DNA from: Squalus acanthias
Taxonomy: Eukaryota
DNA: 64,000 nucleotides
Direction of reading: 5' to 3'
NCBI GenBank assembly: GCA_030390025.1
Contig: CM059431.1
Location: forward strand, 135,224,001 to 135,288,000
Shown: positions 4,388 to 64,000 of the stretch, piece by piece
How positions within the stretch are numbered: the stretch's first letter is position 1
How the letters are laid out: the number at the start of each line of letters is the position of its first letter
Made by a program: the position numbers and the translations under genes
Notes under the pieces: generated by a model
Databases searched by the model: none
Told to the model about the DNA's origin: nothing
The model's input: the letters and a program-made list of their open reading frames with translations, nothing else

Positions 4388-4790
4388 AAGGAAAATACAG
4401 TGGCTGCTGGAAATCTGAAATAAAAATGGAAAATGTTGGAAACACTCAACAGGTCAGGCAGCATCTGTGGAGAGAGAAACAGAGTTAACATTTCAGGTTG
4501 ATGACCTTTCATCAGAACTGGAAGATGTTAGAGAAGAGCAACTTTTATGCAAGTACAGAACCAGTGAAGGGTGGGAGGGGTGTGGGGGTTCGGTGGTGTG
4601 GGGTGGTGGTGAGGGGGTGGGGGGGGCAGGGAAAGAACAAAAGGCAAAAGGCCTCTGATAAGGTGGATGGCAGGAGTGATTAAATGACAAAAGGGATGAT
4701 GATACAAGGCAAAAGGGGGTGATAATTGGGTCAGTATAGAAACAAAAGATGGGTCAAGAGGAGGTGTAACTGGTTACAGCAGAGTTCCGA
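4388..4790 (-). mobile_element. Penelope-like element 3' end (pLTR) fragment with a degenerate minimal hammerhead
   Basis: Homologous to the 28416-28648 element. The minus strand of ~4484-4517 reads GTT-CTGATGA-AAGGTCATCAACCT-GAAATGTT-AAC. Confidence 0.7.
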
Positions 4791-9970: not shown

Positions 9971-10211
9971 AATGTATATTCCCTTTCCTTGTTAGCCCTC
10001 CCCAAATGCATTACCTCACACTTCTCCGGATTGAATTCCATTTGCCACTGTTCTGCCCACCTGACCAATTTATTGCTATCTTCCTGCAGTCTACAGCTTC
10101 CTTCTTCAGTATCAACCACACAGCCGATTTTAGTATCATCTGCAAACTTCTTAATCATACCCCCTATATTCAAGTCAAGATCATTGATATATACCACAAA
10201 AAGCAAGGGAC

Positions 10212-11035
10212 ATAGAAACATAGAAACATAGAAAATAGGTACAGGAGTAGACCATTCGGTCCTTCGAGCCTGCACCGCCATTCAATGCGTTCATGGCTGA
10301 ACATGCTACCTCAGTACCCCATTCCTGCTTTCTCGCCATACCCCTTGATCCCCTTAGTTGTGAGTGTTATATCTAACTCCCTTTTGAATATATTTAGCGA
10401 ACTGGCCTCAACAACCTTCTGTGGAAGAGAATTCCATAGATTCACCACTCTCTGGGTGAAGAAGTTCCTCCTCAGCTCAGTCCTAAATGGCTTCCCCTTA
10501 ATCCTTAGACTGTGACCCCTGGTTCTAGTTTTCCCTACCATTGGGAACATTCTGCCCGCATCTAATTTGTCTAAACCAGTCAGGATTTTAAATGTCTCTA
10601 TAAGATCCCCCCTCATTCTTCTGAACTCCAGAGGATACAAGTTCAGTTGACCCAATCTTTCTTGATATGTCAGTCCGGCCATCCCAGGAATCAATCTAGT
10701 GAACCTTCGCTGCACTCCCTCAATAGCAAGAATGTCCTTCCTTAAGTTAGGAGACCAAAACTGCGCACAATACTCCAGGTGTGGCCTCACCAAGGCCCTG
10801 TACAACTGTAGCATCACCTCCCTACTCCTGTACTCAAATCCCCTTGCTATGAAGGCCATCATTCCGTTTGCTTTCTTGACTGCCTGCTGCACTTGCATTC
10901 CCACCTTCAGTGACTGATGTACCATGACGCCCAGGTCTCGTTGCACGTCCCCTTTCCCTAATCTGCCACCATTCAGGTAATAGTCCGCCTCTCTATTTTT
11001 ACCACCAAAGTGGATAACCTCACATTTATCCACAT
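10212..11035 (-). mobile_element. Young 5'-truncated CR1 copy (about 0.8 kb of 3' end)
   Basis: Near-identical to 50171-50994, with (TTCTATGT)n tail. Interrupts the older CR1 at GGGAC|TAGTAC. Confidence 0.95.
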
Positions 11036-14000
11036 AGTACTGAATCCTGCGGAACCCCACTGGAAACAGCCTTCCAGTCACAAAAACACCCATCAACCAT
11101 TACCCTCTGCTTCCTGCCTCCGAGCCAGTTTTGAATCTAACATAACACTTTGCCCTGGATCCCATGGGCTTTTACTTTGTCTGCCATGTGGAACCTTATC
11201 AAAAGTCTTGCTAAAGTCCATATACACTACATCAAATGCACTACCCTCATCTACCCTCCTTGTTACTGCCTCAAAAAATTCAATCAAGTTTGTCAGACGC
11301 GACCTTCCCTTAACAAATCCGTGCTGACTATCCTTGATTAATCTGTGTCTTTCTAAATGAAGATTTATCCTGTCCTTCAGAATTCTTTCCAGTAATTTTC
11401 CCACCACCAAGGTTAGGCTGACTGGCCTGTAATTACTCCGTCTATCCTTTTCTCCCTTTTTAAACAAGGGTACCATATTAGCAGTCCTCCAGCACCACAC
11501 CTGAAGCCAGAGAGGATTGGAAAATGATGGTCAGGGCCTCTGCTATTTCCTCTTTTGCTTCGCTTAACAGCCTGGGATACATTTCATCCGGGACTGGGGA
11601 TTTATCCACTTTTAAAGCTGCTAAACCCCTTCATACTTCCTCTCTCACTATGTTTATTTCATCTAATATTTCACACTCCTCCCCCCGATAGCAATGTCTG
11701 CTTCGCCCCTCTCCTTTGTGAAAACAGGCGCAAAGTATTCATTAAGAACCCTACTGACGTCTCCCGCCTCCACACACAGATTACCCTCATGATTTCTGAT
11801 AGGCCCTACCCTTTCTTTAGTTATCCTCTTACTCTTAATATATTTATAAAACATCTTCGTGTTTTCCTAGATTTTACTTGCCAAGAATTTTTCATGCTCT
11901 CTCTTTGCTTTCCTAATATCCTTTTTAATTGCACCCCTGCACTTTCTGTACTCCTCTAAATATTCTGGAGTATTTAACCCTTGGTATCTGTCATACGCCT
12001 CCCTTTTATTCTTTATCCGGCCCTGTATGTCCCCAGACATCCAGGGGGCTCTAGATTTGTTAGTCCCACCTTTTTTCTTTAAGGGCTCATATTTGGTCTG
12101 AACCCTCCGGATCTCCGCCTTGAATGCCTCCCACTGCTCTGACACTGATTTACCTTCAAGTAGCTGTTTCCAGTCCACTATGGCTAAATTCCCTCTGAGC
12201 TTAGCAAAATTTGCTTTTCCCCAATTTAGAATTTTTATTCCTGGTCTATCCTTGTCATTTTCCATAACTACCTTAAATGTAGCAGCACTATGGTCACTAG
12301 CACCAAAATGCTCCCCCACTGATATGCCTTCAACTGCCCAGCTTCATTCCCTAAAACTAAGTCCAGAACTGCCCCTCCCTTGTTGGGCTTGCTACATACT
12401 GGCTAAAAAATTTCTCCTGGATGCATTTTAGGAATTCCGCACCTTCACACTAATTTTATCCCAGTTAATATTGGGGTAGTTGAAATCCCCTACTATTACT
12501 GCCCTATAGTTTTTGCACTTCTCAGAAATTTGTCTACATATTTGCTCTTCTATCTCCCTCTCACTGTTTGGCGTCTATAGTACAGTCCCAGCAGTGTGAT
12601 TGCCCCTTTTTTGTTTTTCAATTCGACCCATATGACCTCATTTGATGATCCCTCCAACATATCATCCCTCCTCACAGCTGTAATAGTTTCTTTAATCAAT
12701 ACCGCGACCCCCCCTCCCTTTTTACCTCCCTCTCTATCCCGTCTGAAAATCCTGTAACCAGGAATGTTGAGCTGCCATACCTGCCCCTCTTTCAGCCACG
12801 ACTCTATAATAGCTAAAATATCATAGTCCCAAGTATCTACCTGTGCCCTCAGCTCATCTGCCTTGTTCGCTATACTCCTTGCATTGAAGTATATACCATT
12901 TAGTACAGGCAAACCTCCTTGTTGACTACTATCTAGCCCTTGATTCCTCTGTCCTTCCAATTTACTTTCTACGTTTTTGTTTTCCAATTCCAGTTTTTCT
13001 TCCCTCCTTACCAGATAATAACCAGATATTATTTTTTTTTAATGTTGGTTGAGGGATAACTATTGGCCAGGACACCGGGGATAACTCCCCTGCTCTTCTT
13101 CGAAATAGTGCCATGGGATCTTTTACGTCTACCTGAGAGAGCAGACGGGGCCTCGGTTTACCGTCTCATCCAAAAGACAGCACTCCCTCAGCACTGCACT
13201 GGAATGTATCCTAGCTTTATGTGCTCAAGTCCCTGGAGTGGGACTTGAACTCACAACCTTCTGACTCAGCGGTGAGTGTGCTACCCACTGAGCCACAGCT
13301 GGCACTGTACAAAGGTGCACGTCTGCACCCAGGCTCCGCATGACTCCCTCCATATGCTTATAGAGGGAGTCACAACACGCAGGGAGATTCTCTTCCCTTC
13401 CCATGGGTGGAAGAGACCTCCCCAGGAGATCAACACAGTCTGGTTGCACATTGCACAGGAAGACAGAAGCAGGGATGTTGTCAGGAGTGCCTGGCGCCAA
13501 CCTTTCAATGATCTCAGTAGATCATGAAACGTTACTGCAAAGCCACACTCAAACTCACCCTGCTGTGCCACTCATCACATCCCCATCACTCTGCCTTCCC
13601 TACCCTACTCCTGCACATCCTTATTCACACCAACTTACCTTGCACCTCCACCCATCCCTCTCTATCTACATTATCACTTCCCCATCTCACTAGCCACCCC
13701 TCATACTCACCCTCATCCTACTGCAAGCATACCAACTAACAACACACAAGGGTAGGCACTTGAGAGGTTTAGCCAATGTTCATGTGAAGTTTCTGGTAAT
13801 GTGTTGTCATACAGTGAAATCTATATTTTCAACACTTCACCTTATTGGACAGATGTGTACGCACCTTGAGAAGTGTCTTACTGAGTTCCAATGAATGTTG
13901 AGACATAACTTCCCCCCCGCCCCCCCCCCCCGCAATAATGATGTGTGTGCGTTGAATGGCTTGGACATTATAGTGATGCTTTATGTTGCTGGAGTGAATG

Positions 14001-20132: not shown

Positions 20133-20726
20133 ATTAAATGGTAGGACACTGAGTAGTGTAGAGGAACAAAGGGACCTTGGAGTGCATGTCCACAGATCCC
20201 TGAAGGTAGCAGGCCAAGTAGATAAGGTGGTTAAGAAGGCATACGGAATGCTTGCCTTTATTAGCCTTAGCAGAGAATACAAGAGCAGGGGGGTTATGCT
20301 TCAACTGTATAAAACACTAGTTAGGCCTCAGCTAGAGTACTGCATGCAGTTCTGGTTACCACATTACAGGAAAGATGTGATTGCACTAGAGAAGGTACAG
20401 AGGAGATTTACAAGGATGTTGCCAGGAGTAGAGAATCTTAGCTATGAGGAAAGACTGGATAGGCTGGGTCTGTTTTCCTTGGAACAGAGGAGGCTGAGGG
20501 GAGACCTTATTGAGGTGTATAAAATTATGAGGGGCCTAGATAGAGTGGATAGAAAGGACCTATTTCCCTTAGCAGAGGGGTCAAAAACCAAGGGGCACAG
20601 ATTTGAAGTAATTGGGGGAAGGTTTAGAGGGGATTTGAGGTGAAATTTCTTCACCCAGAGGGTTGTGGGTGTCTGGAACTCACTGCCTGAAAGGGTGGTA
20701 GAGGCAGGAACCCTAACCACATTAAA

Positions 20727-20948
20727 AAAAATGAGAAGTCACACAACACCAGGTTATAGTCCAACAGTTTTATTTGAAATTACGAGCTTTCGGAGCTCTG
20801 CTTCTTCGTCAGGTACAGTGAGCAGTGACGAAGGAGCAGCGCTCCGAAAGCTCGTAATTTCAAATAAAACTGTTGGACTATAACCTGGTGTTGTGCGACT
20901 TCTCATTTTTGTCCACCCCAGTCCAACACCGGCATCTCCGCATCATGA
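20727..20948 (+). mobile_element. Short Penelope-derived fold-back insertion with minimal hammerhead motifs
   Basis: 85-bp arms 20727-20811 and 20826-20910, then a ~38-nt tail GTCCACCCCAGTCCAACACCGGCATCTCCGCATCATGA. TSD ACCACATT(T)AAA. Confidence 0.85.
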
Positions 20949-22589
20949 CCACATTTAAAAAGTACTTGGATGTGCACTTGGGATGCTGTAATCTGCAGGG
21001 CTACGGACCAAGAGCTGGGAAGTGGAATTAGGCTGAATAGCTCTTTGTTTTGGCTGGCACGGACACGATGGGCTGAAATGGCCTCCTTCCGTGCTGTAAC
21101 TTTCTATGATCTATGTTTCAAACTAAATTAATTAATATGCAGATATTATCATCAGAGCTCATGAGCATCAAAGTGGAATTAGTCCCAGTCCACAGTAAAA
21201 ATGATTTCTGTGAGTTCCAGTTATTCATTCCATTTCTCACTCACGGGAGTAAATTATTATCTGCACTGCATGGGGGTAATCTGGCGGAACTGATTACCCG
21301 CTCGTTAGTTTAACCATTCCATGGACAGTTTTGAAAATGGATTGTTGATCTGCTCCGCCAGATTACTGCCCAACATTGAAGATGAAAATTTACCCCACGT
21401 TCTCTTATTCCTTCCTTTTTGCTCTCCTCTCCACGTGCACTACGTGTGCTCCATTTACCTTCTCTCTTACTTTCCGTCTCACAGTCCTTCCCTTTCTCCC
21501 GCAATGTAAGTCAGCCATGTTCTTTCTGTAGTCCCCTGTAGCTGCCGCTTTATGCTGTCATGTCATTGCCTATGACTTCAGTCACTCCCCTTCCTCAATG
21601 TCCACTTTATCTTGTCCAGTCACTTAGATCTATATCATTGTTCAGCTATCACAGCTCCCACTGCTACAATATTACAATTTTGCAGAATTTAAGGCCTTAC
21701 TGAATTTAAATATGACAGAGAATTTTCTAAGAGCAAACATTATTTGGCATTATATACACCAATTTGGAATTTTTCAACCTCATTCTTTACTTAATATTAA
21801 ATAGTTTGAAACTACAGTTAACATACAGCTTCAGATGGAGACTGTAAGATAGTTAAATGATTGGAAACTGTCCTGAGAATATAAACTATGTAAATAATAA
21901 TGAGGATCCCCATTATATAACATTTCAATAATTCATGTTGGCAAGGTTTGGGTTAACTTTTGTGTTCATGAATGCAAAGGACGTGAGTACTGAAAACAGA
22001 ACAGTTTTCTTTTTTTGCATCTACTGTCAGCCTGAAGAATTCCCAGTTGGGTATAGTACAGTCAGGTTCAGAGTAACACTCCTTCTGCTCTACCCAGCAA
22101 TGTCTTAACCCCAGCCTCAGAAGAGCACCATGTACTGCATCATTTTGACAATTCCATTTCCCACACCAGCCGTCACTGTGGTCTCTCTGAATGAGATTGC
22201 CAATTAAATTGAGCTTATTCAGTGAAATTTCAAACTTGTTCAGCCACAGTTTAATTTTATACATATGGAATCAATTCTATTAGTGAACAGCTGATTGGAG
22301 TAAAGTGTAATGGTACTGAGAGAACGGTATTCATGAAGCTTCTCCTTATTTTTGCAATTTCCACCGTTTTTAATTGGCAATCTCTGCTCAGTTTTATTTA
22401 TCGATGTGAACTTCCTTTCACAATTAGATTTTGAACTTGTTTTCAATATAGGTGATTTATAATAGTGTGATAATAACAACTTTAACAAAAATGTATTATT
22501 TAGCAGAAGAAATTGAAAGATATATTTACAAGATAAACAGTAGTGATATCCGTATCATTTAGCTATGAATAAAAATATATTTAGAATCA

Positions 22590-28056: not shown

Positions 28057-29250
28057 ATACCTTTAGACATCCAGGGAGTTATAGCTTAGGATGCCTTTCC
28101 CTTCACTCTCGTGGGAACATATCTAGTCTGTACCTGAACTATCTCCTCCTTGAAGGCCTCCCATTGCTCATTTACTGTTTTACCTCCCAATCTTTGAATC
28201 GATTTCCACCTGAGCCAGATCCATTTTCAACTCACTGAAATTAGCCCTCCTCCAGCTTAGTATTTTCACGTTTAATTGTTCCTTGTCCTTTTCCATAACT
28301 ACTCTAAACTTAATAATATTGTGATCACTATTTCCCAAATGCTTCCTCACTGAAACATGCTGCACTTGCCCCACTTCATTCCCTAGAACCAGATCCAGTG
28401 CTGCTTCCTTCCTTGATATGATAGCAAAATACTGCGGATGCTGGAAATCCGAAATAACAACAGAAAATGCTGGAAAAACTCAGCAGGCCAGACAACATCC
28501 GTGGAGAGAGAAACAGAGTTAACGTTTCAGGTCGAAACCCTTCGTCGGAACCAACGAAGGGTTTCGACCTGAAACGTTAACTCTGTTTCTCTCTCCACTG
28601 ATGTTGCCTGGCCTGCTGAGTTTTTCCAGCATTTTCTGTTGTTATTTCTGTTTCCTTCCTTGTTGGGCTGGAAACACACTGCTCAAGAAAGTTCACTTGT
28701 ACACATTTCAGGAACTCGTCCCCCTCTTTACCCATAACGCTGTCATTTTCCAGTCTATGTTAGGATAATTGAAGTTTCCTATTATCACTACTCTCTAGTT
28801 CTTGCATCATTCTGTAATTTGCCTGCAAATTTGTTCCTCTATCTCCTTCCCACTATTTGGGAGCCTATAGTAAACACTCAGCAGCGTAATAGCTGCTCTA
28901 TTGTTCGTTAATTCTTACCAAGTACATCATCCCTTTCCAGTGCTGTAACAGTATATTTGACCAATAGTGCCACCCCTTCCTTTTGTTCCTGTCCTATCTT
29001 TCCTGAATAACTTGTAGTCAGGAATATTAAGTTCCCAATCCTCCCCTTGTCTGAGCCAGGTCTCTGTTATTGCCTCTATATCACAGCCCCATGTGGCAAG
29101 TTGTGTCTGCAGCTCACCAACCTTATTTACAATACTCCATGCATTTATGCACATGCACTCCAATCCTATCCTAGCCTGCCTTGCATTTTACTCCCTGTAC
29201 GATCCCTCCTATATCTGAACTACTCTATGTTCTAATTGCTATGCAGGACA
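28057..29250 (-). mobile_element. Degenerate CR1 endonuclease-region fragment
   Basis: INAWSIVNK..ITETWL and LGNSDHN peptides. Confidence 0.85.
28416..28648 (-). mobile_element. Short Penelope-derived fold-back insertion (second family) with degenerate hammerhead motifs
   Basis: 95-bp arms 28451-28545 and 28554-28648, and a 35-nt tail at 28416-28450. 14-bp TSD TGCTTCCTTCCTTG / TGTTTCCTTCCTTG. Confidence 0.85.
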
Positions 29251-37075: not shown

Positions 37076-38891
37076 TCCTCCTGCTCCTCAGCTGCTCGCT
37101 GTATAGCTGGTGGCAAGGGCTGTGTCTTGATGATGGCGAGGTTGTGGAGCATGCAACAGACCACCACGAATCTTGACACCCACCCTGCTGAATATTGCAG
37201 GGCTCCTCCAGAGCGCTCCAGGCAGCGGAATCATTGTTTCAGCATGCCAACGGTCTGCTCTATCACATTTCGTGTGGCAGCATGGCTTTTATTGTATGCA
37301 TGCTGCCCACGTGTGCTTGGGTTGTGCACCAGAGTCATGAGCCATGTTGTCAAAGGATAGTCCTTATCACCCAGTAGCCACCCTCTGTTTTGTCGTGGTG
37401 GCTCAAATATAGATGGCACAGCGGATTGGCGCAGAATGAAGACATCATGGGGGAAAAATTCAGCTGCTTGCGCCTCCCGTTAGCGCCTTAAATGGGCGCT
37501 AATGGGGCGTAAAGCAGCTAACGCCCGGGCGCAGCGCCGCCCACGCCTCCCGAAAAATTTAGTGGGAGGTTAGCGGCGGCGGCAGCCGGTAGCGCCCTGT
37601 GGCGCTGCGCCGCCGGCGATGACGTCATCGCCGTGCGCAGCGCCCCGCTCGCGCCCCGGCCGTGATCTTCAGTCGCGCCCCCTGATTTACCGCCAGACGC
37701 TATGTCCGACGGGTTCAGGGGGGCGTACGTGCGGCCGGGGCGGCGATATTTAAAGGGGAGGTGGCAGGCGGCCATTTTTGTTGCTGGCCGCCTGCCAGCA
37801 CCTGCCCCCGTTGCTGTCCCCGGCCCCCGTGAAGCCCCCCCAGCGTGAAGTGCCGGCTGCGCTCCAAGAGCCCGGCACTTCTCTTGAGTGCCGGGCTCTT
37901 TTGCCGGCACTCCCGATCCCTGGGAGCCCAGCTGGGCCCCGGTTCGCGCTGCGCAAGGCCCCTCCCCTTTAAGAAGGGGAGGAAGGCCTGCAATACCGCG
38001 GCGCGACGTGCCGCAGCGCGTGGCGCTGCGGCACGTAGCGCCAGGATATTCACTCGCAGCGCCCCAAGAGGGATGCGGGGTGCTTCCAGTTGCGCCCCGC
38101 TTCCCTCTTGGGGCGCAACCACTGAAGTTCCGGCGCGGGGCCGCTAATTTTTTCGGGGCGCTAAAAGTCGCGCCCCGGCGAGGTTAGCGCCCCAAATGGG
38201 GCGCGACTCAATTTTTCCCCCCATGACTGCTGCCAGGATTCCGCGCACTGACCTGCATGATACTCTGTGTATGGTCACACTCCAGCTGGATGTTGAGGAA
38301 TGGAATCTCCTTCGGTTGCAGTACATATCAGAGCTGAAAAGTGACGTGCGTACAATTAATGGCACCCTGCACCATGGGGAAGCCTGCAATCCTCGCGAAG
38401 CTGTGTGCTCACTCCGCCTGCTGGTCTCTGGTAGGAGAGAATGAAATGTATTCAGCTCTCTTTGAATAGAGAGCCTCAGTGACTTCCCTTACATAATAGA
38501 GGATGGCAAATTGCAAGATGTTGCAAATATCTCCAGCTCCAGCCTGGAAAGTGCCCGACGCATAAAATTTCATGGCCACAGTCACCTTCACAGCCACAGG
38601 CAATGCAGTCCTTGCCCTGCTCTGAGGTTGCAGTTGTGCCTGCAGCAGGTGTCAGTTTTCAGTGAAGACGTCCTTAATAAAATGCAGACATCTCACACAC
38701 TGTTCCTCGCTGAGGTTCAGGTAGGAGAATTGCTCCCTGAACATTCTGGGTGGATATGGCTTCCTGCTGAGAGCCCTTCTCCTCCCCCTCCTCCTCTTCC
38801 CTCTTCTAGCAGCTTGCCCTGCTCTGTGTCACCTCTGCTCATTCTCCCAGTCATGCTGTATTCCAAGGGGAATGCCTACTGCTGCACCCAT
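37070..38891 (-). pseudogene. Harbinger (HARBI1-like) DDE transposase pseudogene
   Basis: FYASGTFQAGAGDICNI, GFPMVQGAINCTH, PGSSH|D, WLLGDKDYPL, YNKSHAATRNVIEQTVGMLK and VVVCCMLHNL. Frameshifted and MITE-interrupted. Confidence 0.9.
37449..38221 (-). mobile_element. GC-rich Harbinger-like MITE, family A (well-preserved copy)
   Basis: TIRs GGGGGAAAAATT / AATTTTTCCCCC. Exact 3-bp TSD CAT (37446-37448, 38222-38224). Confidence 0.93.
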
Positions 38892-47174: not shown

Positions 47175-47408
47175 AGAGGCCAGAGTTGGAGGAAAACAGA
47201 GTTTTCAGCAGGATTTAGGACTGAAGGAGGTTAGAGATGAGGAGGGGGTGAGGCCATGGAGGGATTTCAACACAAAGATGAGAATTTTAAATTAATGCGT
47301 TGGTGGACTGGGAGCCAAGGTTGGTTAGCAAGCAGAAGGCTAATGGTTGAAAGAGACTTGGTGTGAGTTAGGATACAGGCAGCTGAGTTTTGGATGAGTT
47401 CAAATTTA

Positions 47409-47911
47409 TAGTGATAGGGGACTCAATTGTAAGGGGAATAGACAGGAGTTTCTGTGGCCGCAACCGAGATTCCAGGATGGTATGTTGCCTCCCTGGTGCA
47501 AGGGTCAAGGATGTCTCGGAGCGGCTGCAGAACATTCTGAAGAGGGAGGGTGAACAGCCAGCTGTCGTGGTGCATGTAGGTACCAACGATATAGGTAAAA
47601 AGCGGGAAGAGGTCCTACAAGCAGAATTTAGGGAGCTAGGAGCTAAATTAAAAAGTAGGACCTCTAAGGTAGTAATCTCTGGATTGCTACCAGGGCCACG
47701 TGCTAATCAGAATAGAGAGAACAGGATAGTGAGATTGAATACGTGGCTTGAGCAGTGGTGCAGGAGGGAGGGATTCAAATTCCTGAGGCATTGGAACCAG
47801 TTCTGGGGGAAGTGGGACCTGTACAAAAGGGACGGTCTGCACTTGGGCAGGACTGGAACCGATGTCCTCGGGGTAATATTTGCTAAAGCAGTTCGGGAGG
47901 ATTTAAACTAA
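47409..47911 (+). CDS. CR1 ORF1 C-terminal SGNH/GDSL esterase domain (5'-truncated, no native start)
   Basis: VIGDSIVRG, PGARV, HVGTND and DGLHL blocks; stop TAA at 47909-47911. Confidence 0.85.
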
Positions 47912-47958
47912 TATGGCAGGGGAATGGGAACCTATGTAGCGAAACAGGGGGAAGTAAT

Positions 47959-50895
47959 ATGCAGTCAGAAACAAATGTTAGAAGGGTGAGAAACAATAGG
48001 GGAAGGCCGAGTAAACAAAGGCAAGAAACACAAAGGGCCATACTAAATCATAAGTCTAAAAGGACAAAGGATGTTAATAAAACAAGCCTAAAGGCTCTGT
48101 GTCTTAATGCAAGGAGTATCCGTAATAAGGTGGATGAATTGACTGTGCAAATAGATGTTAACGGATACGATGTGATTGGGATTACAGAGACGTGGCTCCA
48201 GAACAATCAAGGCTGGGAACTGAACATCCAGGGGTATTCAACATTCAGAAAGGATAGAATAAAAGGAAAAGGGGGTGGGGTAGCATTGCTGGTTAAAGAG
48301 GAGATTAATGCAATAGCTAGGAAGGACATCAGCTTGGAGGATGTGGAATCAATATGGGTTGAGCTGCAGAACACCAAAGGGCAGAAAACGTTAGTGGGAG
48401 TTGTGTACAGACCTCCAAACAGCAGTAGTGAGGTGGGGGAGGGTATGAAACAGGAAATCAGAGGTGCGTGCAAAAAAGGCACGGCAGTTATCATGGGTGA
48501 CTTTAATATGCATATAGATTGGGCTACTCAAACTGAAAGCAATACGGTGGAGGAGGATTTCCTGGAGTGTTTAAGGGATGGTTTCCTAAACCAATATGTT
48601 GAGGAACCAACTCGAGGGGAGGCCATCCTGGACTGGGTGTTGTGTAATGAGGAAGGACTAATCAGCAATCTTGTGGTACGAGGCCCCCTGGGGAAGAGTG
48701 ACCATAGTATGGTGGAGTTCTACATTAGGATGGAGAAGGAAACAGTTAAGTCAGAGACCATGGTCCAGAACTTAAATAAGGGCAACTTTGAGGGTATGAG
48801 GCGTGAATTGGCGAGGTTAAATTGGCAAGCGATATTTAAGGGGCTATCAGTGGAAGGGCAATGGCAGACATTTAGAGATCGCATGGATGAACTACAACAA
48901 TTGTACATCCCGGTCTGGCGTAAAAATAAAAAAGGGAAGGTGGCTCAACCATGGCTAACAAGGGAAATCAGGGATAGTATTAAAACCAAGGAAGTTGCAT
49001 ACAAATTGGCCAGAAGTAGCAGCAAACCCGGGGACTGGGAGAACTTCAAAACTCAGCAGAGGAGGACGAAGGGTTTGATTAGGGCAGGGAAAATAAAATA
49101 TGAAAGGAAGCTTGCAGAGAACATTAAAATGGACAGCAAAAGCTTCTATAAATATGTAAAAAGAAAGAGGTTAGTAAAAACAAACGTAGGTCCCCTGCAG
49201 TCGGAAACAGGGGAAGTCGTAATGGGGAACAAGGAAATGGCAGATCAATTGAACAAGTACTTTGGTTCGGTGTTTACTGTGGAGGACACACACAACCTGC
49301 CGGAAATAAAAGGGGTCAGAGGATCTGGTAAGAGGGAGGAGCTGAGGGAAATCCTTATTAGTCGGGAAAAGTTATTGGGGAAATTGATGGGACTGAAGGC
49401 TGAAAAATCCCCAGGGCCTGATGGTCTGCATCCCAGAGTACTTAAGGAGGTGGCCTTGGAAATAGTGGATGCATTGACAATCATTTTCCAACATTCCTTA
49501 GACTCTGGATCAGTTCCGATGGAGTGGAGGGTGGCCAATGTAACCCCTCTTTTTAAAAAAGGAGGGAGGGAGAAAGCAGGGAATTATAGACCGGTCAGCC
49601 TGACATCGGTTGTGGGTAAAATGATGGAAGCAATTATTAAAGATGTCATAACAGACCATTTGGAAAGTGGCGACATGATAGGTCCAAGTCAGCATGGATT
49701 TGTGAAAGGGAAATCATGCTTGACAAATCTTCTGGAATTTTTTGAGGATGTTTCCAATAGGGTGGACAGGGGGGAACCAGTAGATGTGGTGTATTTGGAC
49801 TTTCAGAAGGCCTTCGACAAGGTTCCACACAAGAGATTGGTGAGCAAAGTTAAAGCACATGGGATTGGGGGTAATGTGTTGACGTGGATTGAGAACTGGT
49901 TGGCACACAGGAAACAAAGAGTAGGAGTAAATGGGTACTTTTCAGAATGGCAGGCAGTGACCAGCGGGGTACCGCAGGGTTCGGTGCTGGGACCCCAGCT
50001 GTTTACATTATATATTAATGATTTGGACGAAGGGATTAAATGTAATATCTCCAAATTTGCGGATGACACTAAATTGGGAGGCAGTGTGAACAATGAGGAG
50101 GATGCTAGGAGGCTACAGAGTGACTTGGACAGGTTGGGTGAATGGGCAAATGTATGGCAGATGAAGTACAATGTGGATAAATGTGAGGTTATCCACTTTG
50201 GTGGTAAAAATAGAGAGGCGGACTATTACCTGAATGGTGGCAGATTAGGGAAAGGGGAGGTGCAACGAGACCTGGGCATCATGGTACATCAGTCATTGAA
50301 GGTGGGAATGCAAGTGCAGCAGGCAGTCAAGAAAGCAAACGGAATGATGGCCTTCATAGTAAGGGGATTTGAGTACAGGAGTAGGGAGGTGATGCTGCAG
50401 TTGTACAGGGCCTTGGTGAGGCCACACCTGGAGTATTGTGCGCAGTTTTGGTCTCCTAACTTAAGGAAGGACATTCTTGCTATTGAGGGAGTGCAGCGAA
50501 GGTTCACTAGATTGATTCCTGGGATGGCCGGACTGACATATCAAGAAAGATTGGGTCAACTGAACTTGTATCCTCTGGAGTTCAGAAGAATGAGGGGGGA
50601 TCTTATAGAGACATTTAAAATCCTGACTGGTTTAGACAAATTAGATGCGGGCAGAATGTTCCCAATGGTAGGGAAAACTAGAACCAGGGGTCACAGTCTA
50701 AGGATTAAGGGGAAGCCATTTAGGACTGAGCTGAGGAGGAACTTCTTCACCCAGAGAGTGGTGAATCTATGGAATTCTCTTCCACAGAAGATTGTTGAGG
50801 CCAGTTCGCTAAATATATTCAAAAGGGAGTTAGATATAACACTCACAACTAGGGGGATCAAGGGGTATGGCGAGAAAGCAGGAATGGAGTACTGA
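47959..50895 (+). CDS. CR1 ORF2: APE-type endonuclease plus reverse transcriptase (978 aa; the frame is open upstream to 47902)
   Basis: LNARS, ITETWL, YRPP, GDFN and SDH (EN); [28 protein letters not shown] and FADD (RT). No stops. Confidence 0.96.
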   Translation: MQSETNVRRVRNNRGRPSKQRQETQRAILNHKSKRTKDVNKTSLKALCLNARSIRNKVDELTVQIDVNGYDVIGITETWLQNNQGWELNIQGYSTFRKDRIKGKGGGVALLVKEEINAIARKDISLEDVESIWVELQNTKGQKTLVGVVYRPPNSSSEVGEGMKQEIRGACKKGTAVIMGDFNMHIDWATQTESNTVEEDFLECLRDGFLNQYVEEPTRGEAILDWVLCNEEGLISNLVVRGPLGKSDHSMVEFYIRMEKETVKSETMVQNLNKGNFEGMRRELARLNWQAIFKGLSVEGQWQTFRDRMDELQQLYIPVWRKNKKGKVAQPWLTREIRDSIKTKEVAYKLARSSSKPGDWENFKTQQRRTKGLIRAGKIKYERKLAENIKMDSKSFYKYVKRKRLVKTNVGPLQSETGEVVMGNKEMADQLNKYFGSVFTVEDTHNLPEIKGVRGSGKREELREILISREKLLGKLMGLKAEKSPGPDGLHPRVLKEVALEIVDALTIIFQHSLDSGSVPMEWRVANVTPLFKKGGREKAGNYRPVSLTSVVGKMMEAIIKDVITDHLESGDMIGPSQHGFVKGKSCLTNLLEFFEDVSNRVDRGEPVDVVYLDFQKAFDKVPHKRLVSKVKAHGIGGNVLTWIENWLAHRKQRVGVNGYFSEWQAVTSGVPQGSVLGPQLFTLYINDLDEGIKCNISKFADDTKLGGSVNNEEDARRLQSDLDRLGEWANVWQMKYNVDKCEVIHFGGKNREADYYLNGGRLGKGEVQRDLGIMVHQSLKVGMQVQQAVKKANGMMAFIVRGFEYRSREVMLQLYRALVRPHLEYCAQFWSPNLRKDILAIEGVQRRFTRLIPGMAGLTYQERLGQLNLYPLEFRRMRGDLIETFKILTGLDKLDAGRMFPMVGKTRTRGHSLRIKGKPFRTELRRNFFTQRVVNLWNSLPQKIVEASSLNIFKRELDITLTTRGIKGYGEKAGMEY

Positions 50896-51764
50896 GGTAG
50901 CATGTTCAGCCATGAACGCATTGAATGGCGGTGCAGGCTCGAAGGACCGAATGGTCTACTCCTGTACCTATTTTCTATGTTTCTATGTTTCTATGGAGGG
51001 TGGACGATGGGAGAGCATTGAAATAGTTAAGCCTGGAGTTGACAAAGGCATGGATGAGGGATTCAACGGCAGATGGAGTGAGGTAGGGGTAGTGAGGGGT
51101 GATGTTATGGAGGTAGAAGTAGACAGTCTTTGTAATGGCAAGACATGGAGTCAGAAGCTCAGTTCGGGGTTAAATAGGATGCTGAGGTTGCGAACATTCT
51201 GGTTCAGCCTGAGACAGTGGTCAAGGAGAGAGATTGACTCAGTGGCTAGGGAACAGCGTTCGTACCGGGGGCCAAAGACTCTGCTTTCATCTTCCCAATG
51301 TGTAATTGTAGGAACTTTTGCCCACCCAGAACTGGAAGTTGGATAAACAGTCTGAAAGCAGGTCGAGAGAGGTAGTGGTGAGATAAAGTGTTAAGATCGG
51401 CTGGGCCTCTGTGTTCCCGGCCTTGGCGGGTTCTTCCCACACTCCCATGCTTCCCAGCACCCTCCCCTCCTCCCTGTTAATATCAGGGCCCATGTCTTTG
51501 CATCATGTCGCCGAGGGGCAGCAAATAGATGAGAAATAGGAGGGGGCCAGGGATAGATCCTTGGGGACTACAGAGGTAATGACACAGGGACAGGAAGAGA
51601 AGCCATTGCAGGAGATTCTCTGGCTATGACTGGATAGGCAAGAATGGAACCAGGTGAGGGCAGTCCCACTCAACTAGACAATGGAAGAGAGACATTCGAG
51701 GAGGATGGTGTGCTCAACCATGTCCAAGGCTGCAGAGAGATCGAGAAGGATGAGGAGGGATAGT

Positions 51765-59200: not shown

Positions 59201-60558
59201 TGTTCTTGCCATGGAGGGAGTGCAGCGAAGATTCACCAGACTGATACCTGGGATGGCAGGAATGATGTATGAAGAGAGATTGGGTCGATTGGGCTTGTAT
59301 TCGCTAGAGTTTAGAAGAATGAGAGGGGATCTCATTGAAACTTATAAAATTCTAACAGGACTAGACAGACTAGATGCAGGAAGGATGTTCCCGATGGCGG
59401 GGGAGTCCAGAACCAGAGGTCACAGTCTAAGGATAAGGGGTAAGCCATTTAGGACTGAGATGAGGAGGAATTTCTTCACCCAGAGAGTGGTGAACCTGTG
59501 GAATTCTCTACCACAGAAGACAGTTGAGTCCATTTCATTAAATATATTCAAGAAGGAGTTAGATATATTTCTTAAGGCTAAGGGGATCAAGGGATATGGG
59601 GAGAAAGCAGGGACAGGGTACTGAATTTGGATGATCAGCCATGATCGCATTGAATGGCGGAGCAGGCTCGAGGGGTCGAATGGCCTACTCCTGCTCCTAT
59701 CTTCTATGTTCTATGTTCTATGTCTGTGTTTTTTGTCCAGTAACAAATCCTCAATCATATTACCCCCAATCCCATGAGCCCTAATTTTTATGTAATAACC
59801 TCTTGTGTGGCACTTTATTGAATGCTTTTTGAAAATCCAAATGCACTCCATCGACTGCTTCCCCTTATTTACCCTACTAGTTACAGCCTAAAACAACTCT
59901 TAACAGATTTGTCAAACATGATTTCCCTTTCATAAATCCATGTTGACTCATATTGTGATTATCAAAGTGTCCTGTTACCACGTCCATAATAATAGATTCT
60001 ATCATTTTCCCTACTACTGATGTCTGGCTAACTGTTCTATATTTCTCTGTTTCTCTCTCACTCCTTTCTTGAATAGCGGCGTTACATTTGCTACCTTTCA
60101 ATCCAAGGGGACCTTTCTAGAATCTAGGGAATTTTGGAAGATCAAAACCAATGCACCAATATCTCTGCAGATACCTCTTTTAAAACCATAGGATGTAAAC
60201 CATCAGGTCCAGGGAATTTATCGGATTTTAGTCCCATTAATTTCTCCAGTACTCTTTACTAATATTAATTTCTTTAAGTTCCTCATTCTCACTAGAGCCT
60301 TGATTCCCCACTATTTCTGGAATGTTTTTCGTGTCTTCTTCCATGAAGCCAGATACAAAGTATTTGTTTAATGTCTCTGCCATTTCCTTCATCATCACTA
60401 TAATTTCTCCTGTCTCTGCCTGTAAGGGACCCATGTTTACCTTCACTAATCTCTTCCTTTTTACATACCTATAGAAGCTTTTAGAATCTGTTTTTATGTC
60501 TCTTGCTCGTTTACTGTCTTATTTTATTTTCTCTCCATCAATTTCTTGGTCCTCTTTT
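56277..60558 (-). mobile_element. Degenerate CR1 LINE in two pieces (56277-57271 and 59724-60558)
   Basis: RT and C-terminal peptides; colinear across the inserted plus-strand CR1. Confidence 0.85.
57272..59723 (+). mobile_element. 5'-truncated CR1 LINE with a few stops and frameshifts
   Basis: Highly similar to ORF2 at 48540-50990; (TTCTATG)n tail. Confidence 0.93.
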
Positions 60559-60570
60559 CATAGAGTCATA

Positions 60571-61379
60571 GGGGGAGAAATTCAGTATCGCCCCATTTGG
60601 GGCGCAATTATCGGCCGGGCGCAAAGATTAGCGCCAGGCGCTAAGTATCGCCTCCGACTGCAAACTTGACTTTTATCGCCCCTGGAGGTGATTGGAGCGC
60701 GAAATCAGGCGCTTCACACCTGTCTTAAGGCGCAAAGGCCGAGGAGCGAGGCGCTACCGCAGAGCGCTGGCGAAGCTGATGTGATGTCAGTCAGCAATGG
60801 AACACAGACACAATGACGCCGGCCAGTTCTTAAAGGGGAGGGTTGATCTTGCTTTCCATCCACATCCTGCTCATTGCAGCCTTGAATCTCGGCCTGGAGA
60901 CACCTGTACATCAAATCTGCTGGAAAGAACAATGGAGAGGACCAGGGAAAGAGCTCAGAGTGCAGCCCCCATATTCTATTCCAAATCGATACAAGGAAGG
61001 GCAAATCAAAATGAACCTGCAAAGTGCTGCTCAGTACCCAAAACTCCTTCACACAACGTTAAATCTCTCCAGAAGTCTCTCTCTCTTTCAGAATGCGTGG
61101 TTCAAAAATGGCACCAACAAAAAAAGGCAGGAAGCGGTCACCTTTAAATAGCGCTCCCCCAGTCCCTTCCTGAGTGCAAAACGCTCCCCTCAACCTGTCG
61201 TTGCTAGCGGCAGGCGGTAAGGCAGGGGGCGCCACTCAATATCTGCTCCGGGGCGCTACCGGGGCGTTACGCACTCGCAGGGTGCAAATATCGTCACGCC
61301 CGGGCGCTAATCGCTTTGCGACCCATTAGCGCCCTCTTAAGGCGCTAACGGGAGGCGCAACCAACTGAATTTTTTCCCC
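60571..61379 (+). mobile_element. Harbinger-like MITE, family C
   Basis: TIRs GGGGGAGAAATTCAGT / ACTGAATTTTTTCCCC and TSD ATA. Homologous to 29281-30172. Confidence 0.9.
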
Positions 61380-62942
61380 ATAGAGTCATAGATTTATACA
61401 GAACAGAAAGAGGCCCTTCGGCTCATCATGTCCGTGCCGGCCATCAATCCCTGTCTATTTTAATCCCATTTTCCAGCACTTGGTCCATAGTCTTGTATGC
61501 TATGGCGTTTCAAGTGCTCATCTAAATGCTTCTTGAATGTTGTGAGGGTTCCTGCCATCATCAACCTTTCAGGCAGTGGGTTCCAGATTCCAACCACCCT
61601 CTGGGTGAAAAAGTTTTTCCTCAAACCCCTCTAAACCTCCGGCCCTTACCTTGAAACTATGCCCCCTGGTTATTGAGCCCTCTACTAAGGGGAAAAGTTC
61701 CTTTCTATCTACCCTATCTATGCCCCTCATAATTTTGTACACCTCAATCAGGTCCCCCCTCAGCCTTCTCTGCTCTAAGGAAAACAACCCCAGCCTGTCC
61801 AGTCTCTCTTCATAGCTGAAGCGCTGCAGCCCAGGTAACATCCTAGTGAATCTCCTCTGCACCCTCTCCAATGCAATCACATCCTTCCTATAGTGTGGCG
61901 ACCAGAACTGCACACAGTATTCGAGCTGTGGCCTAACTAGTGTTTTGTACAGCTCCATCATAACCTCCCTGCTCTTATATTCTATGCTTCGGCTAATGAA
62001 GGCAGGTATCCCATATGCCTTTTTAACCACCTTATCTACCTGTCCTGCTGCCTTCAGGGATCTATGTACATGCACGCCAAGGTCCCTCTGATCCTCTGTC
62101 CTTCCTAGGGTCCTACCATTCATTGTATATTCCCTTGCCTTGTTAGTCCTCCCAAAATGCATCACCTCTCATTTTTCAGGGTTAAATTCCATTTGCCACG
62201 TTTCTGCCCATCTAACCAACCTGTCTATATCGTCCTGTAGCCTGAGGCTTCCCTCCTCGCTATTTACCAACCCACCAATTTTCGTGTCATCTGCGAACTT
62301 ACTGATCATACCTCCTACATTCATATCTAAATCATTAATGTACACTACAAACAGCAAAGGACCCAGCAGCGATCCCTGCGGTACACCACTGGACACAGGC
62401 TTCCAGTCACAAAAACAACCTTTGACCATCACCCTCTGCCTCCTGCCACTAAGCCAATTTTGGATCCAATGTGCCAAGTTGCCCTGGATCCCATGGGCTT
62501 TTACCTTCGTGACCAGTCTCCCATGCGGGACTTTGTCAAAAGCCTTACTGATGTCCATGTAGACCACATCAACTGCACTACCCTCATCCACACACCTAGT
62601 CACCCCCTCGAAAAATTCAATCAAATTGGTCAGACATGATCTCCCCCTGACAAAGCCATGCTGACTATCCTTGATTAATCCTTGCCTCTCCAAGTGGAGA
62701 CTAATTCTGTCCCTCAGCATTTTTTCCAATAATTTCCCTGCCACTGATGTTAGGCTCACTGGCCTGTAATTCCCTGGTTTATTCCTGCTACCCTTCTTGA
62801 ATAATGGTACTACGTTAGCTGTTCTCCAGTCCTCTGGCACCTCCCCTGTGGTCATGATGCGGAGATGCCGGTGTTGGACTGGGGTGGACAAAATTGAGAG
62901 GTCGCACAACACCAGGTTATAGTCCAACAGTTTTATTTGAAA

Positions 62943-62984
62943 TCACAAGCTTTCGGAGCTATCGATTGCTCCTTCCTCAGGTGA
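62943..62984 (-). ncRNA. Minimal type I hammerhead ribozyme motif (left arm)
   Basis: Reverse complement of 63725-63766. Confidence 0.75.
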
Positions 62985-63724
62985 AGTAAATTAGATACAG
63001 AATCGCCAAAGCATATATAGATAGAGAACAAAGCATGTGTACCTTACAATTGCAGACCACTAAATTAAATCATCCTGACTATCTGCCGAGGTGTGATAAA
63101 GTTAATCAAGTCAGCCAGGAAGGTACCACATCAAAGACATAGCAAGATACAACTGAGACAATGAGGTGTAGTCGCAGGGGTTCTAACGTGTCAAAAGCTG
63201 CCGTCTGTATGTAAAACGAAAAGCTTTAAAATTTTTACTTTTTTACTGGGAAAATTTTTACTTTTTTACTGGGAATCACATCTGTGAACAAGCCAGCGAC
63301 GACTCGAGTCCGGATCACGTCATGTATCGTGACATAAACCCAAGATCCCGGTTGAGACCGGGATCTTGGGTTTATGTCACGATACATGACGTGATCCGGA
63401 CTCGAGTCGTCGCTGGCTTGTTCACAGATGTGATTCCCAGTAAAAAAGTAAAAATTTTCCCAGTAAAAAAGTAAAAATTTTAAAGCTTTTCGTTTTACAT
63501 ACAGACGGCAGCTTTTGACACGTTAGAACCCCTGCGACTACACCTCATTGTCTCAGTTGTATCTTGCTATGTCTTTGATGTGGTACCTTCCTGGCTGACT
63601 TGATTAACTTTATCACACCTCGGCAGATAGTCAGGATGATTTAATTTAGTGGTCTGCAATTGTAAGGTACACATGCTTTGTTCTCTATCTATATATGCTT
63701 TGGCGATTCTGTATCTAATTTACT

Positions 63725-63766
63725 TCACCTGAGGAAGGAGCAATCGATAGCTCCGAAAGCTTGTGA
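63725..63766 (+). ncRNA. Minimal type I hammerhead ribozyme motif (right arm)
   Basis: TCAC-CTGAGGA-A-GGAGC(aatcgata)GCTCC-GAAA-GCTT-GTGA: stem I TCAC/GTGA, both core boxes, and a palindromic AAGCTT in place of stem III. Confidence 0.75.
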
Positions 63767-64000
63767 TTTCAAATAAAACTGTTGGACTATAACCTGGTGT
63801 TGTGCGACCTCTCAATTTTGACCTCCCCTGTGGCCAGAGAGGTTCTGAAAATTTGTGTCAGAGCCCCTGCAATCTCCTCCCTTGCCTCACACAGCAGCCT
63901 GGGATACATCTCATCTGGGCCTGGGGATTTATCCACTTTTAAGCCTGCTAAAACCGCTAGTACCTCCTCCCTCTCAATACTAATTTGTTCAAGTATATCA

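Follow-up and report, generated by a model that had tools for sequence, protein, structure and literature searches.

Two opposite-strand minimal hammerhead motifs in Squalus acanthias as the probable product of one mirrored Penelope-like retroelement insertion

Minimal hammerhead ribozymes (min-HHRs) are known from the pLTRs of metazoan Penelope-like elements (PLEs), where, in the portions of the original description available to us, monomers do not cleave in vitro and dimers are weakly active, and where dual motifs on opposite strands, 100-700 bp apart, occur in Schistosoma (Cervera & De la Pena 2014, PMC4209133). That PLE hammerheads can cleave as dimers is also the subject of work by Lunse et al. 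(RNA Biol), here cited through a review (PMC6765202). For Poseidon of Anolis carolinensis (PAc), the available text of Frangieh et al. (2024, PMC11167929) gives a ribozyme that is assisted by protein and dispensable for insertion and two start sites of reverse transcription that explain the element's tail, and states that the steps of PLE transposition after first-strand synthesis are unvalidated. Inverted pLTRs, tails of 30-40 nt, target-site duplications and self-priming palindromes were described for endonuclease-bearing (EN+) PLEs by Arkhipova et al. (2013, PMC3846280) and Craig et al. (2021, PMC8557442), who, in the sections available, attribute the palindrome at an inverted junction to self-priming on an antisense template. 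In Drosophila, siRNAs from Penelope inverted repeats have been established by small-RNA data (PMC3681739, as far as its available text goes). Inverted pLTRs with tails, opposite-strand min-HHRs and Penelope inverted-repeat siRNAs are thus all already published, and the pattern that we describe here from a shark is real but ordinary.

The locus lies in a 64,000-nucleotide stretch of S. acanthias DNA (hereafter the window) and is an insertion of 969 bp (62852-63820) in a LINE that we take to be of CR1 type. A tailed arm (62889-63352, minus strand) carries the end of a PLE open reading frame (ORF), the 3' untranslated region and the pLTR in element sense, and is followed, after a fold-back loop of 4 nt (63353-63356), by an inverted, tail-less arm (63357-63820, plus strand) that is identical to it, with 0 mismatches over 464 nt. 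The loop is flanked by GGT and ACC and is also in-frame coding sequence for Gly-Leu-Asn. The PLE 'tail' of 37 nt (62852-62888, minus strand) is present in one arm only, is the same in a second copy of the family in the window, and ends in the sole ATG downstream of the ribozyme. Exact 13-bp direct repeats of the LINE sequence (62839-62851 and 63821-63833) enclose the insertion as a target-site duplication. We consider it very likely, from this anatomy, that one endonuclease-bearing PLE, truncated at its 5' end, inserted here very recently and was mirrored by fold-back on landing. The single mirrored insertion is favoured because of the target-site duplication with a restored LINE, the identical arms, the 4-nt loop, the one-sided tail, and the recurrence of this layout in all three palindromes of the window. 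The same features, a head-to-head 5'-truncated copy with a tail at one end, a target-site duplication and a non-LTR element as target, are found in EN+ PLE insertions in the available parts of PMC3846280 and PMC8557442, although the rotifer examples given there have target-site duplications of 8-10 bp rather than 13 bp, and the published insertions differ from this one, which has lost the ORF body and forms a perfect hairpin over its entire length.

The absence of divergence between the arms (0 of 464 positions) gives a 95% upper bound of 0.64%, and each arm holds 16 CpG dinucleotides against 18.8 expected, in a window with a CpG observed/expected ratio of 0.41; since the arms are identical and the CpGs intact, the insertion is very young. 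A 23-nt tandem duplication in the 3' untranslated region (63225-63280 and mirror) is found in both arms and is therefore older than the fold-back.

The reverse-transcriptase coding sequence of the host LINE, on the minus strand, is interrupted after 62169-62851 and resumes at 63834-64000, with a match to RVT_1 (E=3e-32) on 62169-62942. Its flanks are collinear over the insertion site with two other LINE copies in the window, and its frame is open across the site without a stop. In public sequencing runs, LINE-family contigs that pass from 62851 directly into the right flank represent the empty site (21 in run X1, 91 in run X6), and none of the matches listed spans a junction of the 62852-63820 insertion itself. 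Contigs of the PLE family stop at two ends, the tail end (62854; at least 66 in X1) and the tail-less end (62895-62897; at least 258 in X6 and at least 10 in X15), and 2 of the 10 joints listed change strand; 14 reads matched in run X21, which consists of raw DNA reads from another organism. One X1 contig joins the LINE flank at 62847 to the pLTR at 62884 without a tail, with four letters fitting both sides, and possibly records a separate insertion or another allele at this LINE site, unless the joint arose by chance.

The original prediction, made from the letters of the window, was of paired minimal hammerheads on opposite strands of a palindrome, and both motifs match its description in boxes, stems, extra A and palindrome. 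The plus-strand motif (63725-63766) reads from the 5' side of stem I (TCAC, 63725-63728) through CUGAGGA (63729-63735) and the extra A (63736) into a stem II of 5 bp (GGAGC, 63737-63741, with GCUCC, 63750-63754) with an 8-nt loop II, followed by GAAA (63755-63758), the palindrome AAGCUU (63757-63762), the triplet CUU ending at 63762, and the 3' side of stem I (GUGA, 63763-63766). The minus-strand motif (62943-62984) is its base-for-base mirror, with C3 at 62980 and its last base at 62943, and the predicted cuts fall after 63762 on the plus strand and after 62947 on the minus strand. The assignment to the minimal type I hammerheads stands as well, the core boxes, the UH triplet, helices I and II, the palindromic 15.2-16.2 and the extra nucleotide before G10.1-C11.1 all being present, and the likeness to the min-HHRs of PMC4209133, in its available parts, extends to the type I core without helix III, the position of the extra nucleotide between A9 and G10.1, and the 4-bp helix I. 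The motifs differ from the Schistosoma min-HHRs, with stems of 7-8 bp, in their 5-bp stem II and its 8-nt loop, and from the motifs of that paper more generally in having G at N7 and a spacing of ~750-780 bp; the text of it available to us does not mention sharks.

What did not hold was a reading of the 'paired' ribozymes as a unit. The two motifs are one pLTR hammerhead that has been duplicated, and are neither independent of one another nor two cooperating ribozymes. The ribozyme is there twice only for the reason that fold-back took place ~370 nt upstream of it, and the pair is a by-product of how far reverse transcription went before fold-back rather than a designed arrangement. Nor did comparison with covariance models recover a hammerhead family, there being no hammerhead match in Rfam at E<=10 in 60000-64000 or 63700-63800 and no match of any kind at the gathering score in the whole window. 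Two miRNA precursors, MIR6450 and mir-60, were rejected as candidates, with scores below gathering (51.6 vs 70 and 47.3 vs 67 bits) that reflect the perfect hairpin only.

A min-hammerhead descriptor asking for at least 4 bp in each of stems I and II matches three sites in the window (63729 on the plus strand, 62980 and 4515 on the minus strand) and none in any of 200 dinucleotide-type shuffles, so that a chance occurrence of the motifs can be dismissed. Folded as an isolated 56-nt motif, the sequence has stems I and II as its minimum free energy (MFE) structure, with pairing probabilities of 0.7-0.8 and 0.99 respectively. Three distinct motifs can be compared, namely that of this locus, that of the second copy in the window, and that shared by two metagenome loci (L001 and L002, described below). 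Among these N7 (G/C/U), H17 (U/C/A) and loop II vary, and the remaining aligned core positions are constant. Stem I has a single compensatory pair, a C-G to U-A swap; across the stems 25 of 27 cells pair and 2 are broken, a result equalled by 164 of 500 shuffles. Within run X1, G-U replaces an A-U pair of stem II at 53%, and the changes listed include none in the core, with 17 of 505 element positions varying at 4% or more and ~0.5 core changes expected in any case; in run X6, a core CpG has decayed in ~10%. What chiefly identifies the motif as a putative ribozyme is thus its agreement with the published consensus, together with the location in the pLTR, covariation contributing little. Depth steps over the ribozyme in X15 were considered as a sign of cleavage and rejected, as RNA ends do not show in contigs and depth also falls there in X1, a DNA run. 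Loop II (63742-63749 and 62960-62967) contains a self-complementary hexamer, AUCGAU, that could aid contact between dimers; it is not required, because it is missing in the sister copy in the window and in L001/L002.

The PLE ORF is represented by its final 14 codons (GLNRDLGFMSRYMT, then the stop; 63315-63359, minus strand), which run through the hairpin loop and were placed by C-terminal alignment, the 14 residues aligning with the C-termini of two proteins, P0001 and P0002, and of the L002 ORF, with 7 invariant columns. P0001 and P0002 (2 of 92 candidates) both match PF26215, and P0002 also matches PF00078 (reverse transcriptase); a further search among proteins of similar length brought in just one more, 97% identical. 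Searched in metagenome contigs, the hammerhead pattern was found at two loci, L001 and L002, which are 99.6% alike over 677 nt and thus effectively one family, and it had no hits in viral contigs; a 23-nt pLTR pattern had none in metagenome or genome contigs. In L002 the same hammerhead (35 of 44 nt) lies downstream of a PLE-type ORF ending GLNRDRGCKSHY. A CxxxxCxxC motif is present in all three aligned relatives (P0001, P0002 and L002), and a GIY-YIG-like stretch was read by eye in P0001 and P0002; Pfam gave no match on the L002 ORF, GIY-YIG included. We take all three relatives to be endonuclease-bearing from these motifs. EN+ PLEs have a single ORF for a telomerase-like reverse transcriptase with a GIY-YIG endonuclease at its C-terminus. 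An endonuclease-bearing PLE origin is favoured by the ORF end, which matches proteins with reverse transcriptase or PF26215 and of CxxxxCxxC-GIY-YIG type; these were reached through L002, where the hammerhead follows such an ORF. In the available text of Craig et al. (PMC8557442), the Neptune clade is defined by a zinc-finger-like CX2-5CxxC motif before the endonuclease, together with reverse-transcriptase phylogeny. The insertion is probably the 3' end of an endonuclease-bearing, Neptune-like PLE, clade and autonomy being suggested by the relatives, as 14 codons are present here. The PLE origin supposed from the first was in this way borne out by the pLTR hammerhead, the inverted 5'-truncated arm, the one-sided tail, the target-site duplication and the ORF-end match. 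In L002 the 5' region is repeated in inverted form (1-109 and 983-1091), and in L001 reverse-transcriptase sequence is inverted and adjoins the pLTR, so that the inversion habit of the insertions in the window recurs in a distant family.

Two further palindromic PLE insertions lie in the window. The second copy of the same family, from a sister subfamily, is a short fold-back at about 20724-20947 (plus strand) in a LINE fragment, with the tail, a 14-nt loop and an 8-bp target-site duplication. It combines an inverted tail-less arm with a tailed arm and has a CUGACGA core, a CUC triplet and a 3-nt loop II, but one arm begins only within the first box, and stem II of the other contains a mismatch. 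The third (28416-28651) is a fold-back of a different hammerhead-bearing PLE-like family, with an AACGUU palindrome, a one-sided extension, an 8-nt loop and a target-site duplication of 11 bp (15 with one mismatch); one of its arms is truncated, and the core in the longer arm is altered. An inverted arm, a tail and a target-site duplication are thus common to three of three palindromic PLE insertions, with loops of 4, 14 and 8 nt, and two intact ribozymes are found in one of the three, that at 62852-63820. A single pLTR of the 28416-28651 family lies at 4389-4518 (minus strand), with the min-hammerhead at 4515, where the palindrome is broken at a CpG and the sequence extends upstream past the motif.

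While the boundaries of the insertion can be read to the base, we infer the enzymatic steps that would have produced them, beginning with published PLE biochemistry. The element's protein would have nicked the two strands of the LINE target 13 bp apart, and reverse transcription would have started at the tail position of the RNA. The cDNA would then have covered the tail, the pLTR with its hammerhead and the 3' untranslated region before stopping 14 codons into the end of the ORF, an extent that is legible in the insertion itself. Its 3' ACC would have paired with GGT on the far side of the 4-nt loop and so primed self-copying of the cDNA up to the tail-less start site. Host repair would then have completed the second strand, and the result would be the perfect palindrome, with its arms head to head, that now lies between the two copies of the target. 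The 3-bp homology for this snap-back presupposes that a GGT in the parent element encoded the invariant Gly of GLN(R/K)D.

The two element ends one tail apart and the hammerhead in the pLTR are as in PAc in the available portion of PMC11167929; there, however, the ORF starts at stem II of the ribozyme, whereas here there is no ATG at the ribozyme and the first ATG is at the tail end. Targets also differ, PAc preferring AT-rich sequence without homology and the present insertion lying in a GC-rich target, with CCACA shared at the junction by two copies. At the tail-target junction both family copies in fact read CATCATGACCACA (62847-62858 and 20941-20953), with CCACA within the target duplication, a coincidence of two copies noticed post hoc; the commonest family end listed (62854) is 2 nt shorter than the tail end. 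The shared junction could reflect priming by microhomology or a target preference. We regard as rather doubtful the broader proposal that this PLE family would in vivo use short homology at both primings (~5 nt of target annealing and 2-3 bp of cDNA snap-back), each insertion being a self-masking hairpin that feeds silencing. If it were true, such double short-homology priming would depart from the homology-independent initiation of the Anolis element in vitro, and young palindromes would form a large natural record of the second-strand step in PLE transposition. A narrow literature search on Penelope with microhomology or second-strand priming returned only PMC3846280 as relevant, and the idea may already be in print.

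A reading compatible with the mirrored insertion, which we hold to be unlikely though plausible, is that the locus acts as a source of hairpin RNA, its 464-bp duplex being diced or edited and so dampening the PLE family. The predicted fold of the whole insertion has an MFE of ~-898 kcal/mol with 942 of 969 nt paired, and in transgenic D. melanogaster siRNAs map to inverted regions of Penelope, rearranged copies of which form long inverted repeats from which dsRNA and siRNA can arise, as they might from the RNA modelled here. Yet the same source (PMC3681739, available text) describes silencing by these siRNAs as inefficient. Weakly against the hairpin-RNA reading, A>G plus T>C sites number 9 in a run guessed to be RNA and 9 in a DNA run under the same organism label, a comparison of contigs from different individuals; site 62987 is higher in the former run than in the latter, with the same qualification.

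The folding models bear out the earlier expectation that a ~460-bp duplex masks the ribozyme. Stem II pairs with a probability of ~1e-20 in the full insertion, and the bases of the second arm are all mirror-paired at 7 of 7 transcript lengths, so that read-through RNA would form a 464-bp hairpin and leave the ribozyme inactive. A role for the hammerhead, if it has one, would most likely lie in full-length tandem element RNA, in dimer- and probably protein-assisted cleavage, with both motifs here as passengers.

That the palindrome is itself mobile, as a MITE-like or retrozyme-like non-autonomous element whose ribozymes in both orientations process plus and minus RNAs, is very improbable in our judgement. 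Ribozymes on both polarities recall viroid-like RNAs, and the very long inverted repeats inside a target-site duplication would fit such an element, but the arms reach the centre, the tail is asymmetric, the centres differ between copies, and no second copy with the 63353-63356 centre is found in the window. Tandem direct repeats, moreover, are part of the definition of animal retrozymes (bioRxiv 10.64898/2026.07.22.740005, in its available text). An animal non-LTR retrozyme, which would have two or more hammerheads on the same strand, was ruled out by the motifs' location on opposite strands without a tandem unit, and a MITE or foldback DNA transposon, for which symmetric terminal inverted repeats and a common centre would be expected, by the one-sided tail, the retroelement ORF end and the copy-specific centres.

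Still less credible is cutting of a host or read-through transcript by these hammerheads, alone or as an intermolecular dimer. The core is intact, a single arm alone folds stem II with a probability of 0.99, and an RNA starting within the second arm would avoid the hairpin. Against this, the RNA of either strand has a single sense motif and hence no dimer partner in cis; the motif belongs to the second arm, follows its complement by 749 nt, and is wholly paired into the duplex in all the prefixes that were folded. A dimer could form helix III only as AGCU/AGCU, four base pairs worth -2.5 kcal/mol, and stem I has a probability of 0.04 in the single arm; monomers are inactive (PMC4209133) and protein is needed (PMC11167929) according to the available parts of these papers, and the other two palindromes of the window lack two intact motifs. 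Host gene domains are absent from the 28 long and 111 shorter ORFs of the window, all matches being to transposon domains, a search that short exons would escape. The suggestion that the insertion may truncate a host pre-mRNA accordingly lost its footing, with the ribozyme duplexed, no dimer in cis and no host domain in the 139 ORFs, and on the modelled folds cutting of a host pre-mRNA at 62852-63820 is unlikely.

An assembly artefact from a fold-back chimeric read would suit the 100% identity of the arms and the want of a listed record across the junctions, but is highly unlikely, since a chimera would mirror the flank, whereas at this locus unique LINE sequence continues in register beyond the 13-bp duplication and the tail is missing from one arm exactly as in the second copy.

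As a single locus the mirrored insertion carries little weight, being a dead retroelement stump within another retroelement. What it offers is a clean specimen: with zero divergence between the arms, the point of fold-back, the two ends of the element and the duplicated target are all preserved to the base. Genome-wide sets of such copies could probe priming by snap-back and microhomology with the target, and whether vertebrate PLE hairpins give siRNAs could be read from small-RNA data.

Other transposable elements are present in the window. A near-complete LINE (47387-51346, plus strand) has an ORF1 with a GDSL esterase and a 1002-aa endonuclease/reverse-transcriptase frame, and an inverted copy of it, 836 bp long and 99% identical, at 10211-11046 marks its family as young. 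A DDE_Tnp_4 transposase fragment, presumably of Harbinger type, lies at 37234-37479 on the minus strand.
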